DNA from: Escherichia coli
GTDB lineage: Bacteria > Pseudomonadota > Gammaproteobacteria > Enterobacterales > Enterobacteriaceae
Assembly (NCBI RefSeq): GCF_011045215.1
Contig: NZ_CP049201.1
Strand: one strand, 5' to 3'
Length of the DNA: 64,000 nucleotides
Shown here in pieces: positions 5,197 to 51,878 of this stretch. A model generated the notes under the pieces. That model saw nothing but the letters and a program-made list of their open reading frames with translations, did not search any database and was not told where the DNA came from. Position numbers and translations under genes: made by a program. The stretch's first letter is position 1. The number at the start of each line of letters is the position of its first letter.

Positions 5197-5223
5197 GATG
5201 TGGACTGTAGTTCAGTCCACATC
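5197..5223. terminator. Inverted repeat between convergent azoR and ynbD (terminator-like)
   Basis: GATGTGGACTG-tagtt-CAGTCCACATC perfect 11-bp stem; weak T-run so function uncertain. Confidence 0.4.
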
Positions 5224-12290: not shown

Positions 12291-12353
12291 ATGCACTCCA
12301 TGCCATTAAAAAAGAAACAAAAGGGAAATGCATCTTTCCCTTTTGTATATTCG

Positions 12354-13214: not shown

Positions 13215-13368
13215 CGCACCCTGCCCTGTAATAAAACGGATTAAGAAAAATCAGTATAGAAATGAATAGAGATAAATAATGCGAGGGCGTAAACAAGATT
13301 ACTGGATGAGTTGCTCTATTGTCCTGAAAGACACCAAAACAAAACGCGTCAAGTACCGCATCCGGCAA

Positions 13369-13402
13369 TAAAAAACCGCAACCTGTATCAGCGTTGCGGT
13401 TT
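13369..13402 (-). terminator. Intrinsic terminator after paaY (end of paa cluster)
   Basis: A-run, CCGCAAC...GTTGCGG stem, T-run; symmetric so potentially bidirectional. Confidence 0.6.
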
Positions 13403-13444: not shown

Positions 13445-14035
13445 TTACTGTTTCGGTCGCAGATCCTCATCAAATACCAGGCGCTTTCTGCCAGGTTCAA
13501 CTTCCCGCAATGGCTCGACTTGATGCAACGTCTGCTTACAGCGTGTCACCAGCACCTGATACTCATGCGTGCCCTGCTTTTTCCATGCCAGTTCTTGCTC
13601 ACTAAGTTCACGAATCGCTTTGGCCGGGCTGCCGACAATCAGGTAATTAGCAGGCATTTCTGCTTTGGCTTTCACAAATGCGGATGCGCCAACAATGCTG
13701 TTCTCGCCAATCACCGCACCGTCCATCACTACCGCGTTCATTCCCACTAATGCATTGCGGCGGATAATGCAGCCGTGAAGAATAGCGCTATGACCAATAT
13801 GTCCATCTTCTTCAACGACTGTATCCTGCTCGGGAAAACCGTGCATAACGCAATTATCCTGAATGTTCGCGCCATCTTTCACCACGATACGACCAAAATC
13901 GCCACGCAGGCTGGCATTGGGTCCAACGTAAACACCCTTGCCGAGAATAACATCGCCGATCAATACCGATGTCGGATGAACAAAACTCTCTTCTGGTACA
14001 ACCGGAGTCAGACCGTCTATCTGGTAAATTGGCAT
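13445..14035 (-). CDS. paaY: Hexapeptide-repeat (left-handed beta-helix) protein PaaY
   Basis: 196 aa; gamma-carbonic-anhydrase-like hexapeptide repeats; last gene of paa cluster. Confidence 0.92.
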
Positions 14036-14967
14036 AACGCCTCCTGTTCAATGTTCAAACCGCCAAAACGTTGAAAATACAGGCTACCCGGCGCAGGCAG
14101 TTCACCGACCGAGGTTTCACCTTTTTCACTAACGAACGCTAAAGCGGCAGGCGCTACGCGCTGATAAATGTTGATACACAGCTGACGCGCCGTATGCCCT
14201 GCCCAGTGTGCCGGAAGCAACTCCTCCGGCAACAATGGGTCTTTAAGGACGACACGGCGATAAAAATGGATCAGTAAAAGCTGAATATGAAATGCACGCT
14301 CCGGGGTTAACTCGTCTGCCGCCTCTTTTAACAGCGGCACCAGCGGGCGGAATGACTGAATAAAGGTTTCGTACATGGCATTTTGTTCAGTTAAATGCCA
14401 GCACTCTTCTACTCTGGCACGCAGTGCTGCACGAGAAAGCGCCAGTGGTATTTGCGCTTCAAAACAAATTACGTTATCCGCCACACCCGCTTCATGCAAA
14501 AGTGTCTGTACATCGGCCAGTTTTTGCGACGGCGATGCCATCAGGCTGGGTGCCAGTGCGCCAAAACCTTGCCAAATCAACTGCTTTTTGACATCAGCCA
14601 GCGTCGTTTTATCTAAACCTTCCGAGAGCAACAGGAGCCATTTACCATCCCATGCAGGTTGCTCTGCGCGATAGATTTTACTTTCTGCCCGTCGCGTCAG
14701 GCGCAAGCCTTTATCACTGAGGCTATAGAAACTGCGTCGCCCGATGCGGGAAACATCCAGCCAGCCTTCTTTATTAAGACGAAACAAAGCGGTGCGGACG
14801 AAACGCTCACCAAATCCCAGCCCTTCCAGCAAAGCCGCCAGACTACCCAGCCAGATTTCACCACCACGATGGGAAAGCGAATCACCATACAGAGAGGAGA
14901 TCAGTGATGTGCCACTGACAGGAACAGCGTTGACAGCATGTTGGATAAAAGTATCAAGTTTACTCAT
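14017..14967 (-). CDS. paaX: Phenylacetyl-CoA-responsive transcriptional repressor PaaX
   Basis: 316 aa; matches recalled PaaX; position upstream of paaY. Confidence 0.93.
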
Positions 14968-15029
14968 TCGATTCAGTCTGTTGTTATTGTTGTGATTTAT
15001 GAATCATAGCACAGGTCGTATCGACTTCT

Positions 15030-15057
15030 GGCCCTGGTGGTTTACCTCACCAGGGCC
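15030..15057. repeat. Perfect 10-bp inverted repeat in paaK-paaX intergenic region
   Basis: GGCCCTGGTG-gtttacct-CACCAGGGCC; no T-run; possible attenuator/REP-like structure. Confidence 0.5.
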
Positions 15058-15067
15058 ATACGACACG

Positions 15068-16381
15068 TCAGGCACCAACAATATTGCGCAGATCAAACAC
15101 CCGACACGCCTTGCCTTCTGAACGCGGGATACTGCCACAGTTAACGATCATCACATCGGTAGAAATCCCCACCATCGACTTAATCCGATGGCGCAGCTGG
15201 TGGCATACCTGGCAACGCTGCTCATGCGTCAATGTCAGGCTGCTTTCTTTCAGCTCTACTTTCACAGAAAGTGAATCAAGATGCCCTCGGCGGTTCACCT
15301 CCAGTTGGTAATGCGGCGATAAATGTTCGAATTTGACAATCTCTTCTTCCAGTTGTGACGGGAAGACATTCACACCGCGAATGATCAACATGTCATCGCT
15401 GCGTCCGCTGATGCGATCCATGCGGCGCATGGTTCGTGCCGTTCCTGGCAACAGTCGGGTTAAATCACGCGTGCGGTAACGAATGACCGGCAATGCTTCT
15501 TTGGTCAGCGTGGTGAATAACAGTTCGCCATGTTCGCCATCGGCAAGCGGTGTGCCGTCATGAGGATTAACAATTTCAGGATAGAAATGATCTTCCCAAA
15601 TAGTTGGGCCGTCGGTCGTTTCCAGACACTCCATCGCCACCCCCGGCCCCATCACTTCTGACAGGCCATAAATATCCAGTGCGGTGATCCCCAGACGCCG
15701 TTCAATCTCTTTACGCATGGCCTGTGTCCACGGCTCAGCACCAAACACTCCAACCCGCAGCGAGCAACCGCTGGCATCACCGCCCAACTGCCGCTCCAGC
15801 TCTTCAATCAGGTTAAGGCAATAAGATGGCGTAACCATGATCATATCTGGTTGAAAATCGCGGATCAGTTGCGCTTGTTTTTCTGTCTGCCCGCCAGACA
15901 TCGGGATCACCGTAGCGCCCAGACGTTCGGCACCATAGTGCGCGCCCAGCCCACCAGTAAACAGGCCGTAACCATAGGCAACATGAATTTTGTCTTTGGG
16001 CGTGCCACCTGCCGCACGCAAAGAACGCGCTACAATATTGGCCCAGTTATCAATATCGTTTTGCGTATAGCCGACAACTGTCGGTTTACCTGTGGTTCCC
16101 GAAGAAGCATGAATGCGCACCACTTGTTCCATCGGCACGGCAAAGGTGTCGAAAGGATAGTTGTCGCGCAGATCCTGTTTGGTGGTACAGGGAAATTTAC
16201 GCAGGTCTGAAAGTTCCCTGAAATCATCAGGATGTACGCCTGCTGCGTCGAATTTGCGCCGATACATCGGCACATTTTCATACGCGTGTTTGAGCGTCCA
16301 TTTCAGACGCTGTGTTTGCAACGCCTGTAACTCATCAACAGACGCGGTTTCAATCGGGTCAAGCTTTGTATTGGTTATCAT
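15068..16381 (-). CDS. paaK: Phenylacetate-CoA ligase PaaK
   Basis: Adenylate-forming enzyme; start placed at MITNTKLDPIE (437 aa) instead of the overlapping ORF-track start. Confidence 0.92.
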   Translation of the reverse strand: MITNTKLDPIETASVDELQALQTQRLKWTLKHAYENVPMYRRKFDAAGVHPDDFRELSDLRKFPCTTKQDLRDNYPFDTFAVPMEQVVRIHASSGTTGKPTVVGYTQNDIDNWANIVARSLRAAGGTPKDKIHVAYGYGLFTGGLGAHYGAERLGATVIPMSGGQTEKQAQLIRDFQPDMIMVTPSYCLNLIEELERQLGGDASGCSLRVGVFGAEPWTQAMRKEIERRLGITALDIYGLSEVMGPGVAMECLETTDGPTIWEDHFYPEIVNPHDGTPLADGEHGELLFTTLTKEALPVIRYRTRDLTRLLPGTARTMRRMDRISGRSDDMLIIRGVNVFPSQLEEEIVKFEHLSPHYQLEVNRRGHLDSLSVKVELKESSLTLTHEQRCQVCHQLRHRIKSMVGISTDVMIVNCGSIPRSEGKACRVFDLRNIVGA

Positions 16382-16407: not shown

Positions 16408-17613
16408 TCAAACACGCTCCAGAATCATGGCGATGCCCTGACCGACACCGATGCACATGGTGCATAATGCGTAACGACCGTTACGCCGATGCAACTCATG
16501 GCTGGCAGCCAGTGCCAGGCGGGCACCACTCATTCCCAACGGATGGCCTAAGGCGATAGCGCCTCCGTTGGGGTTAACATGTGGGGCATCATCAGGCAGC
16601 CCCAATTCGCGTAGTACACCCAACGCCTGGGCCGCGAACGCTTCGTTCAGTTCAATCACGTCCATATCGTGAATACTCAGCCCCGCGCGTTCCAGCACCC
16701 GGCGAGTTGCAGGCACCGGACCAAGCCCCATCAGACGCGGTTCCACCCCGGCGGTTGCCATGGCTACGATACGCGCTCGCGGCGTCAGTCCATGCGCTGC
16801 TGCCATCTGTTCACTGGCAATAATCAACGCAGCGGCTCCGTCATTCACCCCGGAGGCATTGCCTGCGGTAATCACCCCATTGGCACGAAACGGTGCTTTC
16901 AGCCCACGTAACTGTTCCAGCGTCGTTTCCGGGCGCAGATGCTCATCATGTTGTATTTCTATTACAACACCTTTCTTGTTTTTCAACACAACCGGAACAA
17001 TCTCCTCAGCCAGAATGCCTGAGGATTGCGCTTTTGCCGTACGTTGCTGACTGCGTAGCGCAAAACTATCTTGATCTTCTCGCGAGATTTTTAACAGTTC
17101 AGCTACATTCTCTGCCGTTTCCGGCATGCTGTCAGTTCCAAATTGTTGAGCCATGAGCGGGTTCACAAATCGCCAGCCAATAGTGGTATCAAACATCTCA
17201 GCCTGACGAGAAAATGCACTGGTTGCCTTGCCCATAACAAACGGTGCCCGTGACATTGACTCCACGCCACCGGCGATCAGCAAATCGCCATCGCCCGCTT
17301 TAATCGCCCGTGCGGCGAACCCCAGTGCGTCCAGCCCGGAACCACACAAGCGGTTAATGGTTGTGCCGGAAACACTCTGCGGCAGCCCCGCCAGTAAAGT
17401 CGCCATCCGGGCTACGTTACGGTTATCTTCTCCCGCCTGATTAGCACAGCCGAGGATCACATCATCGATACATTCCGCATCGAGACGCGGGTTTCGCACC
17501 AGCAGTTCCCGCAAAGGGATAGCAGCCAGATCATCAGCCCGAACACCTGATAATGCCCCGCCGTAGCGACCAATTGGCGTACGAATTCCGTCACAAATAA
17601 AGGCTTCACGCAT
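16408..17613 (-). CDS. paaJ: 3-oxoadipyl-CoA / 3-oxo-5,6-dehydrosuberyl-CoA thiolase PaaJ
   Basis: 401 aa; thiolase signatures (catalytic Cys region CGSGLDA, NEAFAAQ, C-terminal [11 protein letters not shown]). Confidence 0.93.
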
Positions 17614-24579: not shown

Positions 24580-24620
24580 GTCATCACCTTTACGATTCCA
24601 GTTTTCGTGAATTAATTAAA

Positions 24621-24635
24621 AACACGAATCACGTT
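24621..24635 (-). promoter_or_regulatory. Candidate PaaX operator half-site in paaA promoter
   Basis: Minus-strand AACGTGATTCGTGTT contains TGATTCGYG core of the PaaX box as I recall it. Confidence 0.4.
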
Positions 24636-29445: not shown

Positions 29446-29470
29446 AAAACGGCACCAGGTGCCGTTTTTT
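29446..29470. terminator. Bidirectional intrinsic terminator between convergent tynA and feaB
   Basis: AAAA-CGGCACC-a-GGTGCCG-TTTTTT. Confidence 0.7.
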
Positions 29471-31223: not shown

Positions 31224-32129
31224 ATGAACCCCGCAGTGGATAATGAGTTTCAGCAATGGCTTTCCCAAATCAATCAGGTATGCGGAAATTTTACCGGACG
31301 CCTGCTGACTGAGCGTTACACGGGTGTACTGGAAACGCATTTTGCCAAAGGACTAAAGCTGAGCACCGTGACAACCAGCGGGGTGAATTTATCCCGCACC
31401 TGGCAGGAGGTAAAAGGCAGTGACGATGCCTGGTTTTACACTGTTTTTCAGCTTAGTGGTCAGGCGATAATGGAGCAGGATGAGCGTCAGGTGCAGATTA
31501 GCGCAGGCGATATTACGTTACTCGATGCCTCACGACCCTGTTCGCTTTACTGGCAGGAGTCTTCTAAACAGATTTCATTACTTTTGCCACGCACTCTGCT
31601 GGAACAATATTTTACCCATCAAAAACCTGTCTGCGCAGAAAGACTGGACGCTGACTTACCCATGGCGCAACTCAGTCATCGCCTGTTACAGGAGAGCATG
31701 AATAACCCGGCACTTTCTGAAACAGAAAGTGAAGCTGCGCTACAGGCGATGGTGTGTCTGCTGCGCCCGGTACTTCATCAGCGGGAATCTGTTCAACCTC
31801 GCCGTGAACGTCAGTTTCAAAAAGTGGTTACGTTGATAGACGATAATATTCGCGAAGAGATATTACGCCCGGAGTGGATAGCCGGAGAGACAGGTATGTC
31901 AGTACGTAGTTTGTACCGAATGTTTGCCGATAAAGGTTTGGTGGTCGCGCAATATATTCGTAACCGTCGTCTCGATTTTTGTGCTGATGCGATTCGCCAT
32001 GCCGCAGATGATGAAAAACTGGCAGGCATTGGCTTTCATTGGGGATTTTCCGACCAGAGTCATTTTTCAACGGTATTTAAGCAACGCTTTGGGATGACGC
32101 CAGGCGAGTATCGCCGTAAATTCCGCTAA
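31224..32129 (+). CDS. feaR: AraC-family activator of tynA/feaB
   Basis: 301 aa; C-terminal AraC-type HTH; divergent from feaB. Confidence 0.9.
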   Translation: MNPAVDNEFQQWLSQINQVCGNFTGRLLTERYTGVLETHFAKGLKLSTVTTSGVNLSRTWQEVKGSDDAWFYTVFQLSGQAIMEQDERQVQISAGDITLLDASRPCSLYWQESSKQISLLLPRTLLEQYFTHQKPVCAERLDADLPMAQLSHRLLQESMNNPALSETESEAALQAMVCLLRPVLHQRESVQPRRERQFQKVVTLIDDNIREEILRPEWIAGETGMSVRSLYRMFADKGLVVAQYIRNRRLDFCADAIRHAADDEKLAGIGFHWGFSDQSHFSTVFKQRFGMTPGEYRRKFR

Positions 32130-32300
32130 CTAATTCGCGTTGCATGTACTGCAACGCGAATTAGTTAAAACAGATATTTGACTATGCATTTTTCAGGGCG
32201 AAAGGCAATTTGACAGGAGTTTTTGAATATTCACCTTGTTTCAGGAAAATAGATCAATCGCTTTCTCCTGTAGCGTTATCCCGATATTGCGGTTTTGCTA

Positions 32301-32820: not shown

Positions 32821-35456
32821 TGTTTTTCCTCACACTCTTTTCCTTGCGGACAGTCATTTCCCGGCAGACGTGCGTTCTGCTCCAACCATGCCTGGAGATT
32901 ATCGCCAAAGCGTAAACTGCGCCACAGCGTAAAAATATTCTCTTCATGATGGTAATTAAGGTTTACCGTACCGCTTTTACCATCGACGCGACTGGTGCCC
33001 GAAATGTTGGCCTGCATGGTTAACACACCGAGATTATCTAAATTAATCCTTGTTGATGAGCGACTGATTTCCATATAACGCAACCAGTTGATGGCAGTTC
33101 CAGCGGTCATATTGTCTTTGGCCACCGCATCTGCAGTGTCTTTATCCAGACGCAGCGTCATCGGCCCCGCGTTTGCCAACCAGCCATCTTTGACAATCCA
33201 TTTTTCATTGTTCAGCCATAGTGGCAACGCCCCACTAAATGCCCCAGACATAGCAAACTGTTTCGGATTAACCGCGCTAACCAGTTCGCTGGATGAGAGA
33301 TTATTCAGCCGCAACAGCGCCGGGTCATGTTGCGGCATACGTAATTGTTTCATCAGCACGTTACCGCCTAACACATCGACGCTAACATCAGTCAACAGCA
33401 ATGGTTCTTCTTCAGTCCACGGATAACGCCCTTGCAAATCAGCCGTAATATTTTTCGCTGTCACCAGATTAATCACTTCGGCAATTCGCAACGTAACGGG
33501 GCCGCGAGTCCCCAGATGCCAGGCTCCATCGGCAAAACGGAAAGGCAGGACAAAATCGACACCGTTAACCTGATTATCTGGCATCCAGGCACTACCGCCT
33601 TTCAACACGCCGTGCCCTCCCGCGCGGAATCCTTGTTCAGGCGCAGCAGAAAATGCAACCTGAGCATACAGTTCACCATCGCGTAAGTTCATCTTCCAGT
33701 CGGGTGGCACCAGCGGCTGGAATACAGTCAGTGATTGTTTAGGCCACCAGGCGTTACCGCGCAGACGAATACCGTCCCAGCGACCATTTACCCGAACCGG
33801 GCCAATCTCACCAGCATGTAAATCGCCTTTAAAGAGGAAATACGTCGGATCGCGCCCATCGACGCTAAATTTTAAGGTTGATGGCGGTAACACACTGCCG
33901 CCAGTGAACAGCGTTTGCCCGGCGTCCAGTGACAGCGCGCCGCTGAAGGAGGGATGCTGTGCGTCACGTACCCAGGCGACGGGCTTGTCGAGAATTAATC
34001 GCGGCTTTTCTACCGTCATCGTACCGTATTGTAACTGGTCGAAACCGGTGGAGAGATCGGTCAGCGTAATCGTGCTGTCATGCCACTCACCTTTTCCTGC
34101 GACATCCCAGGTGGCATTCATCGGTGTAAAGCTCCCTTTTCCCCAGTAGCGCCACTGCCAGCGGCCAGCGTCAGGGAGAAAATCATTCGCCAGCCCATCC
34201 ATATGCAGCACGAAATCGCCCAGTTCATTTTCATGCGCCTGCAAAATGGCCTGCAAACGTCCGTCAACACCACGTTGGGTGACTTTTACACCCGCTAAAG
34301 GCCAGCGGATTTCATCGATGTCCAGCGAATCGATGACTCTTCCCTTTGAACGAAGTAACGCGCCTGGCTCAAAGGTCAGCGTTGGGTCAGACAGACTTCC
34401 ACTTAGCTGCGCAGGTAAACGGGCATATAAAATGAGGTCCGCCTGTTTCGCTTCACCGGTCAGCTGCAGAGGCAGCTGGCTGTTATCCATGCTTAATTTT
34501 CCTGGGCCAAAATTAAGCACCGCGTTGCCCTTACCCGCTTGCCCCTGGGTCAGCACACTCAGTCGTCCGCTGACCAGAGCGTTCTCAAGCCCTGCCTGCC
34601 AGTTGTCGACTTTGACACCCAGTCGGCCACTCAAAGGAAAACCTGCATACGGCCAGCTCCAGCGACCATCGCTTACGGTCAATTGTTGACGAGTAATTCG
34701 CCACGGCAAATCGAGCAACGGATCGCCGTTATCCCGTGCCAGCACGATCAATTGCCCGCTATTTTCCTGCCAGTCCAGCTCGGCATCCACCAGTGACGGT
34801 TCCTGCGGCAAGTTTAACGTCGCAGTAGCATGCCCACTTACAGGAAGTCCATCCGGCACGAGCGGCATAGTAAATTCCCCCACCAGTTTAACCGGCGGCT
34901 GATTTTCAAACGCGACGACATCCAGTTCGCTGACTGTAAGTTGTTGCCCTTTCAGCTGGCCTTGAAATTTAACTTTTTCGCCCTGATAACGCAGTTGCTG
35001 GATATCAGAGGTTAATGCGAGAGAGAGTTTTCCCTGCCATTCCTGCCAGGGAGAAAAAATCAGTTTATCGATATTGATCCAGGTGTTAGGCAGCATGGAC
35101 TGCCACTGCGCGAGGGTTTTTGGAGCAGCTGGCGATTGCTCCGTCTGCGGCAATTTCGCCAGACAAGCAGAATCAAGTTCTACCATGCCGACGTTCAATA
35201 ACCAGCGGCTGGGATGTGAAAGGCTGGCGTTGGTGATATGCGCAAGCTGACAATCTCCCACCAGATAACGGAGATCGGGAATGATTAAACCTTTACGCGT
35301 AATGCGTGGGCTTTCATCTAATGCAATACGTGTCCCGAGCGGTAGCCAGATGCCCGCCAGCGTGGGAACCCACAGCCCGAGCGTCATCAGCAGCGTCAAC
35401 GGCACAAGAATAATCAGTAATAACAGCGCGAGAACGGCTTTATATTTACCCAGCAT
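32817..35456 (-). CDS. ydbH: AsmA-like envelope protein YdbH
   Basis: 879 aa; N-terminal membrane anchor; forms operon with ynbE and ydbL (overlapping stops/starts). Confidence 0.9.
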   Translation of the reverse strand: MLGKYKAVLALLLLIILVPLTLLMTLGLWVPTLAGIWLPLGTRIALDESPRITRKGLIIPDLRYLVGDCQLAHITNASLSHPSRWLLNVGMVELDSACLAKLPQTEQSPAAPKTLAQWQSMLPNTWINIDKLIFSPWQEWQGKLSLALTSDIQQLRYQGEKVKFQGQLKGQQLTVSELDVVAFENQPPVKLVGEFTMPLVPDGLPVSGHATATLNLPQEPSLVDAELDWQENSGQLIVLARDNGDPLLDLPWRITRQQLTVSDGRWSWPYAGFPLSGRLGVKVDNWQAGLENALVSGRLSVLTQGQAGKGNAVLNFGPGKLSMDNSQLPLQLTGEAKQADLILYARLPAQLSGSLSDPTLTFEPGALLRSKGRVIDSLDIDEIRWPLAGVKVTQRGVDGRLQAILQAHENELGDFVLHMDGLANDFLPDAGRWQWRYWGKGSFTPMNATWDVAGKGEWHDSTITLTDLSTGFDQLQYGTMTVEKPRLILDKPVAWVRDAQHPSFSGALSLDAGQTLFTGGSVLPPSTLKFSVDGRDPTYFLFKGDLHAGEIGPVRVNGRWDGIRLRGNAWWPKQSLTVFQPLVPPDWKMNLRDGELYAQVAFSAAPEQGFRAGGHGVLKGGSAWMPDNQVNGVDFVLPFRFADGAWHLGTRGPVTLRIAEVINLVTAKNITADLQGRYPWTEEEPLLLTDVSVDVLGGNVLMKQLRMPQHDPALLRLNNLSSSELVSAVNPKQFAMSGAFSGALPLWLNNEKWIVKDGWLANAGPMTLRLDKDTADAVAKDNMTAGTAINWLRYMEISRSSTRINLDNLGVLTMQANISGTSRVDGKSGTVNLNYHHEENIFTLWRSLRFGDNLQAWLEQNARLPGNDCPQGKECEEKQ

Positions 35457-43782: not shown

Positions 43783-43825
43783 ATAAAAATCCCCAGTTGT
43801 CAGCAACAACTGGGGATTTACTTTT
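43783..43825. terminator. Bidirectional intrinsic terminator downstream of the HTH-peptidase gene
   Basis: Perfect 10-bp stem CCCCAGTTGT-cagca-ACAACTGGGG flanked by A-rich and T-rich runs. Confidence 0.7.
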
Positions 43826-51838: not shown

Positions 51839-51850
51839 ATTTACTCCATT

Positions 51851-51876
51851 AAAAAACCCGCTTTCGCGGGTTTTTT
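51851..51876. terminator. Intrinsic terminator immediately after the moron gene and 13 nt before the J-like gene
   Basis: AAAAAA-CCCGC-tttc-GCGGG-TTTTTT, perfectly symmetric. Confidence 0.75.
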
Positions 51877-51878
51877 AC

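Follow-up and report, generated by a model that had tools for sequence, protein, structure and literature searches.

The 100-nt spacer between paaK and paaX in Escherichia coli raises the question of what a conspicuous palindrome and a TGATTC element are doing between the last catabolic gene of the phenylacetate cluster and the gene for its repressor. In the window, which is the whole 64,000-nucleotide stretch of E. coli DNA that was analysed, the phenylacetate (paa) cluster lies on the minus strand and its ORF list runs paaJ (16408-17613), paaK, the spacer, paaX and paaY. The paaK coding sequence, for phenylacetate-CoA ligase, occupies 15068-16381 and ends in a TGA at 15070-15068, and paaX, which encodes a GntR-type repressor and is the first gene of paaXY, occupies 14017-14967 with its ATG at 14965-14967, followed by paaY at 13445-14035. 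The spacer itself (14968-15067) probably houses two adjacent and functionally separate modules, namely a 3' stem-loop (module A, 15017-15067) and the Px promoter and operator (module B, 14965-15011). The E. coli paa genes are a textbook aromatic-catabolism system, so that the significance of the locus is mostly one of annotation; it is ordinary and known in substance, and its sole loose end is a strong antisense RNA 3' end at the hairpin. What the analysis adds is a precise placement of the Px operator and extended -10, with a phylogenetic footprint of both, a degenerate right half-site in E. coli, K-12 above all, by comparison with other Enterobacteriaceae, a U-less hairpin at the paaK 3' end that is positionally conserved and sense-biased, and the recognition of that strong, uncommented antisense end within a published Term-seq table.

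The spacer is a regular component of the species. Of 5426 complete E. coli genomes, 3165 have a match to a 300-bp query centred upon it, with identities of 95-98.3% and always between genes annotated as paaK and paaX, and the RefSeq annotation at E. coli loci of 96-98% identity places the end of a 1314-nt paaK 100 nt ahead of paaX. The exact spacer allele of the window was found in none of the complete E. coli genomes matched. In E. coli O145:H28 RM12581 an internal paa deletion fuses paaF to a 3' remnant of paaK, with the hairpin and paaX both kept.

Module B corresponds to a promoter that has been described before. According to the account given in PMC9493321, which cites Fernandez et al. 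2014, paaXY is driven from Px, PaaX binds Px in vitro and is released by phenylacetyl-CoA, and the repressor acts on its own promoter through steric hindrance of RNA polymerase. The same account, citing Fernandez 2014 and Kim 2004, gives the operator as TGATTC(N27)GAATCA. PaaX autoregulation, which had been proposed for this spacer from the letters alone as a candidate, is thus correct and is not new, since Fernandez et al. 2014 (via PMC9493321) had reported autorepression at Px before.

The putative core promoter of Px is an extended -10 element, TGcTATGAT, at 15003-15011 on the minus strand, with the TG at 15011-15010 and the hexamer TATGAT at 15008-15003. The element came out of a promoter scan with relaxed rules, and its assignment as the -10 is inferred from its conservation. 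A search for relatives of PaaX yielded 80 loci, mostly from the Enterobacteriaceae, and the paaK-paaX spacer was taken from each. In 58 loci TG(C/T)TATG is fixed 44 nt from the ATG with a column identity of 90-100%, within a block that extends from (C/T)(G/A)TGCTATGATTC to GAATCA-N-ATG. There is no recognisable or conserved -35 element, the letters at 15026-15031 being CCAGAA in the foot of the hairpin, and a combined sigma-70 and terminator scan, the rules of which require a -35 and a T-run, returned nothing in the spacer. An alternative -10, CATAAA with the -35 TCGATA, was rejected, as CATAAA is not conserved in other genera.

The PaaX operator at Px reads TGATTC-N26-GAATCG (14969-15006, minus strand), with its two inverted half-sites at 15006-15001 and 14974-14969, the latter separated from the ATG by a single nucleotide. 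The exact form TGATTC-N26-GAATCA is found in 52 of the 58 orthologous loci and its geometry is fixed. For the looser pattern TGATTC-N20-32-GAATC the 64 kb window has two matches where 0.39 would be expected, once at Px (15006-14970, N26) and once in the paaA/paaZ control region (24631-24594, N27). This second PaaX-type site, TGATTC-N27-GAATCG (24594-24631, minus strand), lies just upstream of the paaA start, and on its opposite strand a TATGATTCGTGAT motif faces paaZ. The half-sites at Px and their inverted orientation match those of the PaaX operators of the paa regulon (Pa, Pz, Px and pac; TGATTC-N26-28-GAATCA), as do the spacing of about 26-27 bp and the overlap with the core promoter. Compared with the quoted operator, however, the spacing here is 26 rather than 27 and the right half agrees at 5 of 6 positions, or 4 of 6 for the GAAGCG of K-12. 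Overlap of the left half-site with the conserved extended -10 accords with the steric hindrance of RNA polymerase reported for Px. Bound PaaX would occlude the polymerase at Px, and phenylacetyl-CoA would free the promoter from its repressor.

The right half-site is where E. coli departs from its relatives. It is GAATCG in the window and in most E. coli and GAAGCG in K-12 and strain M8, whereas most other genera of the Enterobacteriaceae have a perfect GAATCA. The sequence suggests that autorepression may be weaker in E. coli, and in K-12 especially, as a consequence of this degenerate half-site. In Buttiauxella and Cedecea (L059, L061-L063, L065, L066, L069 and L084) there is no TGATTC-N26-GAATCA; these loci keep a -10-like TGCTATGTTT (TGCTATTCTT in L084) with GAATC(G/A)(C/T)AT...TGATTT upstream, which suggests a different operator arrangement. 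Most genera also carry an in-frame ATG that precedes the aligned paaX start by three codons (ATGAATCAGATG), within the right half-site (for example L008, 2492-2503); E. coli has CTG at this position, and no clear Shine-Dalgarno sequence precedes either paaX start.

The TGATTC half-site (15006-15001) had been recognised in the sequence-only reading, which placed it correctly on the paaX-coding strand and saw it as part of an imperfect palindrome. That palindrome, TGATTTATGAATCA (14993-15006, plus strand; TGATTCATAAATCA on the minus strand), is 12/14 palindromic and does contain the left half-site, but it is not the operator unit, because AAATCA, its second arm, is conserved only in Escherichia and Pseudocitrobacter. 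A wider version of the same idea holds that a dimeric protein binds either TGATTTATGAATCA or the inverted repeat of module A as double-stranded DNA; for TGATTTATGAATCA this would be PaaX on a compact 14-bp site. Both are indeed palindromic in the window. However, most genera lack the AAATCA arm whereas the distal GAATCA hardly varies, the half-sites of published PaaX operators are separated by about 27 bp, and the GC palindrome of module A is not a perfect DNA palindrome in 9 of 10 alleles and is not conserved between genera, all of which make such a site extremely improbable.

Module A is built on a perfect inverted repeat, TGGCCCTGGTG-N8-CACCAGGGCCA (15029-15058, both strands), of 11 bp with an 8-nt loop. 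A 10-bp hairpin at 15030-15057 had been described beforehand, and its letters, GGCCCTGGTG (15030-15039), GTTTACCT (15040-15047) and CACCAGGGCC (15048-15057), are exact; only its size needs amending, as the perfect repeat is one pair longer (T15029/A15058). In RNA of the paaK sense (minus strand), RNA folds extend the stem-loop over 15017-15067, so that its first base directly follows the stop codon, and the window allele folds into 7 bp, an internal loop of 2 and 5 nt, and 11 bp. In antisense RNA (plus strand) the same hairpin spans 15015-15071 and includes an outer stem, GTCGTAT/ATACGAC, at 15015-15021/15058-64. Compared with shuffled sequences, the fold of the spacer RNA has a z-score of -4.8 for the minus strand and of -5.6 for the plus strand.

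Perfect inverted repeats of at least 10 bp with loops of 3-10 nt give 20 raw matches in the window, a count in which the same hairpin can recur at several loop lengths and which corresponds to about 9 distinct hairpins; composition-preserving shuffles give 0.6 +/- 0.9. Those that were inspected are at gene ends. Other members of this set, all with short loops, are at 5197-5223, 12317-12346, 29446-29468, 32127-32167, 34490-34519, 43787-43819 and 51850-51877, the longest being the 18-bp repeat at 32127-32167. Several of them are flanked by A/T-runs, which suggests bidirectional terminators. An Rfam scan of 14500-15500 at E <= 10 gave chance matches only, the best scoring 18.8 bits against a gathering score of 55.

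The position of the hairpin immediately suggests a terminator, and it shares with canonical intrinsic terminators a GC-rich stem-loop placed right after the last gene of an operon. It differs from them in that no U-tract (at least 5 U in 8 nt) is found 3' of the stem on either strand, the tails being AGAAGUCGAU on the minus strand and AUACGACACG on the plus strand. The earlier remark that a T-run is lacking is therefore accurate for both directions, and a terminator scan of 14600-15500 was negative. Without a U-tract, module A is not a canonical intrinsic terminator. Nor is this a local habit, since in the same window paaXY ends, after paaY, in a canonical terminator, AAACCGCAAC-N10-GTTGCGGTTT followed by TTTTTTATT (13366-13402, minus strand), which, unlike the paaK hairpin, has its U-tract; the scan missed this one because its loop is longer than 8 nt.

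The hairpin could still be a weak or non-canonical intrinsic terminator, one that halts most Pa-driven transcription after paaK and insulates Px. In the literature paaA-K and paaXY are described as two transcription units, the hairpin follows directly on the last catabolic gene, and in a minority of genera, Klebsiella and Raoultella among them, the equivalent hairpin carries a U-rich tail (...CCGGGGATTTTCCTGTG). Against this stand the negative scan, the canonical nature of the true paaXY terminator and the lack of a U-tract in every E. coli allele aligned. Moreover, among 62 hairpins at the equivalent position, a tail with at least 5 T in 8 nt is seen in only 4, and one with at least 4 T in 11. 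We regard termination by this hairpin as unlikely.

Variation within E. coli points to a structure that is maintained in RNA of the paaK sense. The hairpin is present in all 3165 of the 5426 complete genomes that have the locus, and 11 alleles, of which 10 are distinct, were aligned. Most alleles fold in the sense RNA into 7 bp, a 3-nt bulge, 13 bp and an 8-nt loop, at about -37 kcal/mol. Across the 10 distinct alleles the 10-bp inner helix is 99% paired in minus-strand RNA; at three of its pairs the sole change is to G.U, and a mismatch is seen in one allele. The 20-pair sense structure as a whole is 97% paired, with six pairs toggling between Watson-Crick and G.U. The variation is thus almost wholly from G-C or A-U to G.U, which pairs on the minus-strand RNA only. 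Because G.U turns into A.C on the complement, the sense fold is the more stable one, by 3.6-11.5 kcal/mol in 11 of 11 alleles. The perfect DNA palindrome is peculiar to the window, in that 9 of the 10 distinct alleles have one inner pair as U.G in the sense RNA and hence as a C.A mismatch on the other strand. Covariation is not significant: the inner helix has no double compensatory changes and the shuffle controls are not exceeded. The outer stem GTCGTAT/ATACGAC was rejected as a conserved sense feature, as one of its pairs forms in the window only; the outer register of most alleles pairs 15061-67 with 15017-23, in addition to the 13-bp inner stem.

Beyond E. coli it is the position of a hairpin that persists rather than its letters. 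Upstream of the promoter block the spacer is unconserved across genera, with a column identity of 30-40%, and the place of the E. coli hairpin is taken, in about 59 other Enterobacteriaceae, by stable hairpins of unrelated sequence or by REP-like units. Nearly every spacer has a strong GC-rich hairpin, whether unique, REP-like or made of CCCTCTCCC/GGGAGAGGG units. A fold z-score below -2 was obtained for 86% of the 59 spacers, the median being -3.5. When the two strands are compared, sense RNA gives the more stable fold in 44 of 58 cases (Wilcoxon p = 1.5e-4), a test on phylogenetically related and hence not independent loci, many of which carry repeat elements with an orientation of their own. 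The shortest spacers, of 81-97 nt, have exactly one strong hairpin each. As these unconserved spacers still fold, the conserved property is a stable hairpin, usually without a U-tract, in the place where the paaK message ends.

The frequency of repeats in this spacer raises the possibility that the E. coli hairpin has no selected function and is the neutral remnant of a REP-like palindromic element, mobile or repetitive, that landed in a permissive spacer. With REP and BIME elements it has in common that it is an intergenic GC-rich palindrome at the 3' end of an operon, and REP-like units do fill the same spacer in Kluyvera, Citrobacter and others; elsewhere the spacer holds CCCTCTCCC/GGGAGAGGG units or insertions longer than 1 kb. 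It differs from them in being without the REP consensus and in being single-copy in E. coli. A blastn search (word size 11, E <= 10) found it at a median of 1 place per genome, the matches inspected were all at the paaK-paaX spacer, and their count was identical to that from the 300-bp query. As a single-copy sequence it is not a REP/BIME-type repeat, and membership of such a family was rejected. The lack of related copies at blastn sensitivity, the pairing kept in 10 alleles through wobble-compatible changes and the retention of one strong hairpin in even the shortest spacers all argue against a relic, which we consider decidedly unlikely.

A further possibility concerns translation. In the sense RNA the helix begins at 15067, immediately 3' of the TGA, and in the shortest spacers the hairpin starts about 5-12 nt into the spacer, that is, past the paaK stop codon, so that the stem might slow ribosome termination or release on paaK and in this way tune PaaK output. 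Liang, Rudd and Deutscher reportedly described such an effect in 2015 for REP elements lying no more than 15 nt from stop codons. Terminator-like hairpins near stop codons are common, however, and usually have no such effect, which renders this role very improbable here.

The only RNA ends that have been mapped to the hairpin are on the strand opposite to paaK. Adams et al. 2021 (PMC7815308) list, in Supplementary file 1, the curated dominant Term-seq 3' ends of MG1655, roughly 1,050-1,175 per condition. Two of these are antisense to paaK, one at MG1655 position 1463435 (minus strand) in LB at OD 0.4 with 26,321 reads, and one at 1463441 (minus strand) in M63 with 27,693 reads. The coordinates were checked against NC_000913.3, which has the end of paaK at 1463438 and the start of paaX at 1463539; the 3' end is base 51 of the printed 61-mers. 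On the plus strand of the window these ends fall at 15065 (for 1463441) and 15071 (for 1463435), which puts them 8 and 14 nt, respectively, beyond the inner stem and 1 and 7 nt beyond the outer one. The main text of Adams et al. 2021 makes no mention of paaK or paaX, and no annotated RNA was found at the hairpin. Literature searches for a paaX antisense RNA or a spacer sRNA gave nothing relevant, and Cappable-seq supplements gave no coordinate matches at the locus. The Term-seq media were LB and M63 glucose, without phenylacetate, in which induction of the paa operon is not expected, and the lack of a sense-strand end in these data is therefore uninformative.

These published ends could mean that the hairpin works mainly in the antisense direction, forming, as terminator or stabiliser, the 3' end of a discrete cis-antisense RNA some 50-105 nt long that covers Px, the operator and the paaX 5' UTR. 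Besides the two abundant ends, a hypothetical promoter of near-consensus form, TTGACA-16-TATCAA, can be read at 14930-14957 on the plus strand, inside paaX codons 4-13; its K-12 version is TTTACA-16-TATCAA. The predicted RNA would be about 100 nt long if it arose from this promoter, or about 55 nt if it started near 15014. On the other hand, the candidate promoter is not conserved outside Escherichia, the G.U toggling and the fold energies favour the sense strand, the antisense stem of K-12 has a C.A mismatch, and the ends may stem from pervasive transcripts trimmed back to the nearest hairpin. A mainly antisense function is accordingly a possibility to be kept in mind, albeit a doubtful one. 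It is quite improbable that a discrete, fairly abundant cis-antisense RNA ends at the hairpin, crosses the paaX 5' UTR, the operator and Px, and modulates paaXY through transcriptional interference or pairing with the paaX leader. Such an RNA, were it a regulator, would add a second layer of control on the repressor gene.

The explanation that most likely accounts for module A is that of a structure that forms or protects RNA 3' ends, as opposed to an intrinsic terminator. Dar and Sorek 2018 (PMC6061677) described a class of stable stem-loops without U-tracts that have precise 3' ends directly downstream and give protection against PNPase and RNase II. The paaK hairpin resembles these in its stability, its missing U-tract and the precise 3' ends a few nt downstream, which in MG1655 are on the antisense strand. 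It differs in overlapping the -35 position of the next promoter and in its absence from the bicyclomycin-sensitive (Rho) table of Adams et al. (file 2), in which neither paaK nor paaX appears. The absence is a weak negative, given that paa induction was not expected, and an involvement of Rho is consequently unsupported.

In the proposed sequence of events, module A would be the last part transcribed of the paaABCDEFGHIJK mRNA, and transcripts that extend beyond paaK would either read through into paaXY or be terminated downstream. The 3'-5' exonucleases may then trim such transcripts back to the foot of the hairpin, and the trimmed end would stabilise the catabolic mRNA and mark its boundary with the regulatory operon. 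As the element is a palindrome, the hairpin may do likewise for RNA of the opposite strand, which is the case seen in MG1655. The original suggestion of a partial terminator or RNA-stabilising structure that sets the catabolic operon apart from paaXY is reasonable to this extent, with a hairpin that has no U-tract, is positionally conserved and sense-biased, and has 3' ends mapped to it, although these ends are on the antisense strand.

The spacers of the other genera also have features of their own. Enterobacter, Lelliottia and Pseudocitrobacter carry at least one CCCTCTCCC-N3-4-GGGAGAGGG unit followed by GGGTGAGGG, and the spacers of Kluyvera, Citrobacter and Pluralibacter hold REP-like units. 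The loci with either type of repeat are L008, L011, L016, L018-L021, L029, L033, L034, L054, L070, L072, L078, L080 and L083, with the repeats in the part of the spacer upstream of position 2501, and spacers of about 0.8-1.75 kb are found at L059, L062, L063, L065, L069, L073 and L079. These repeats and insertions, some of the latter longer than 1 kb, give the spacer the look of an insertion hot spot. Two of the loci bear unexpected labels. One is a 414-bp contig assigned to 'Pseudoalteromonas phenolica' (L085) that is 99% identical to E. coli PaaX, and the other is a contig labelled Chryseobacterium (L032) with an enterobacterial paaX (84% identity); both are probably cases of contamination or mislabelling in public assemblies.
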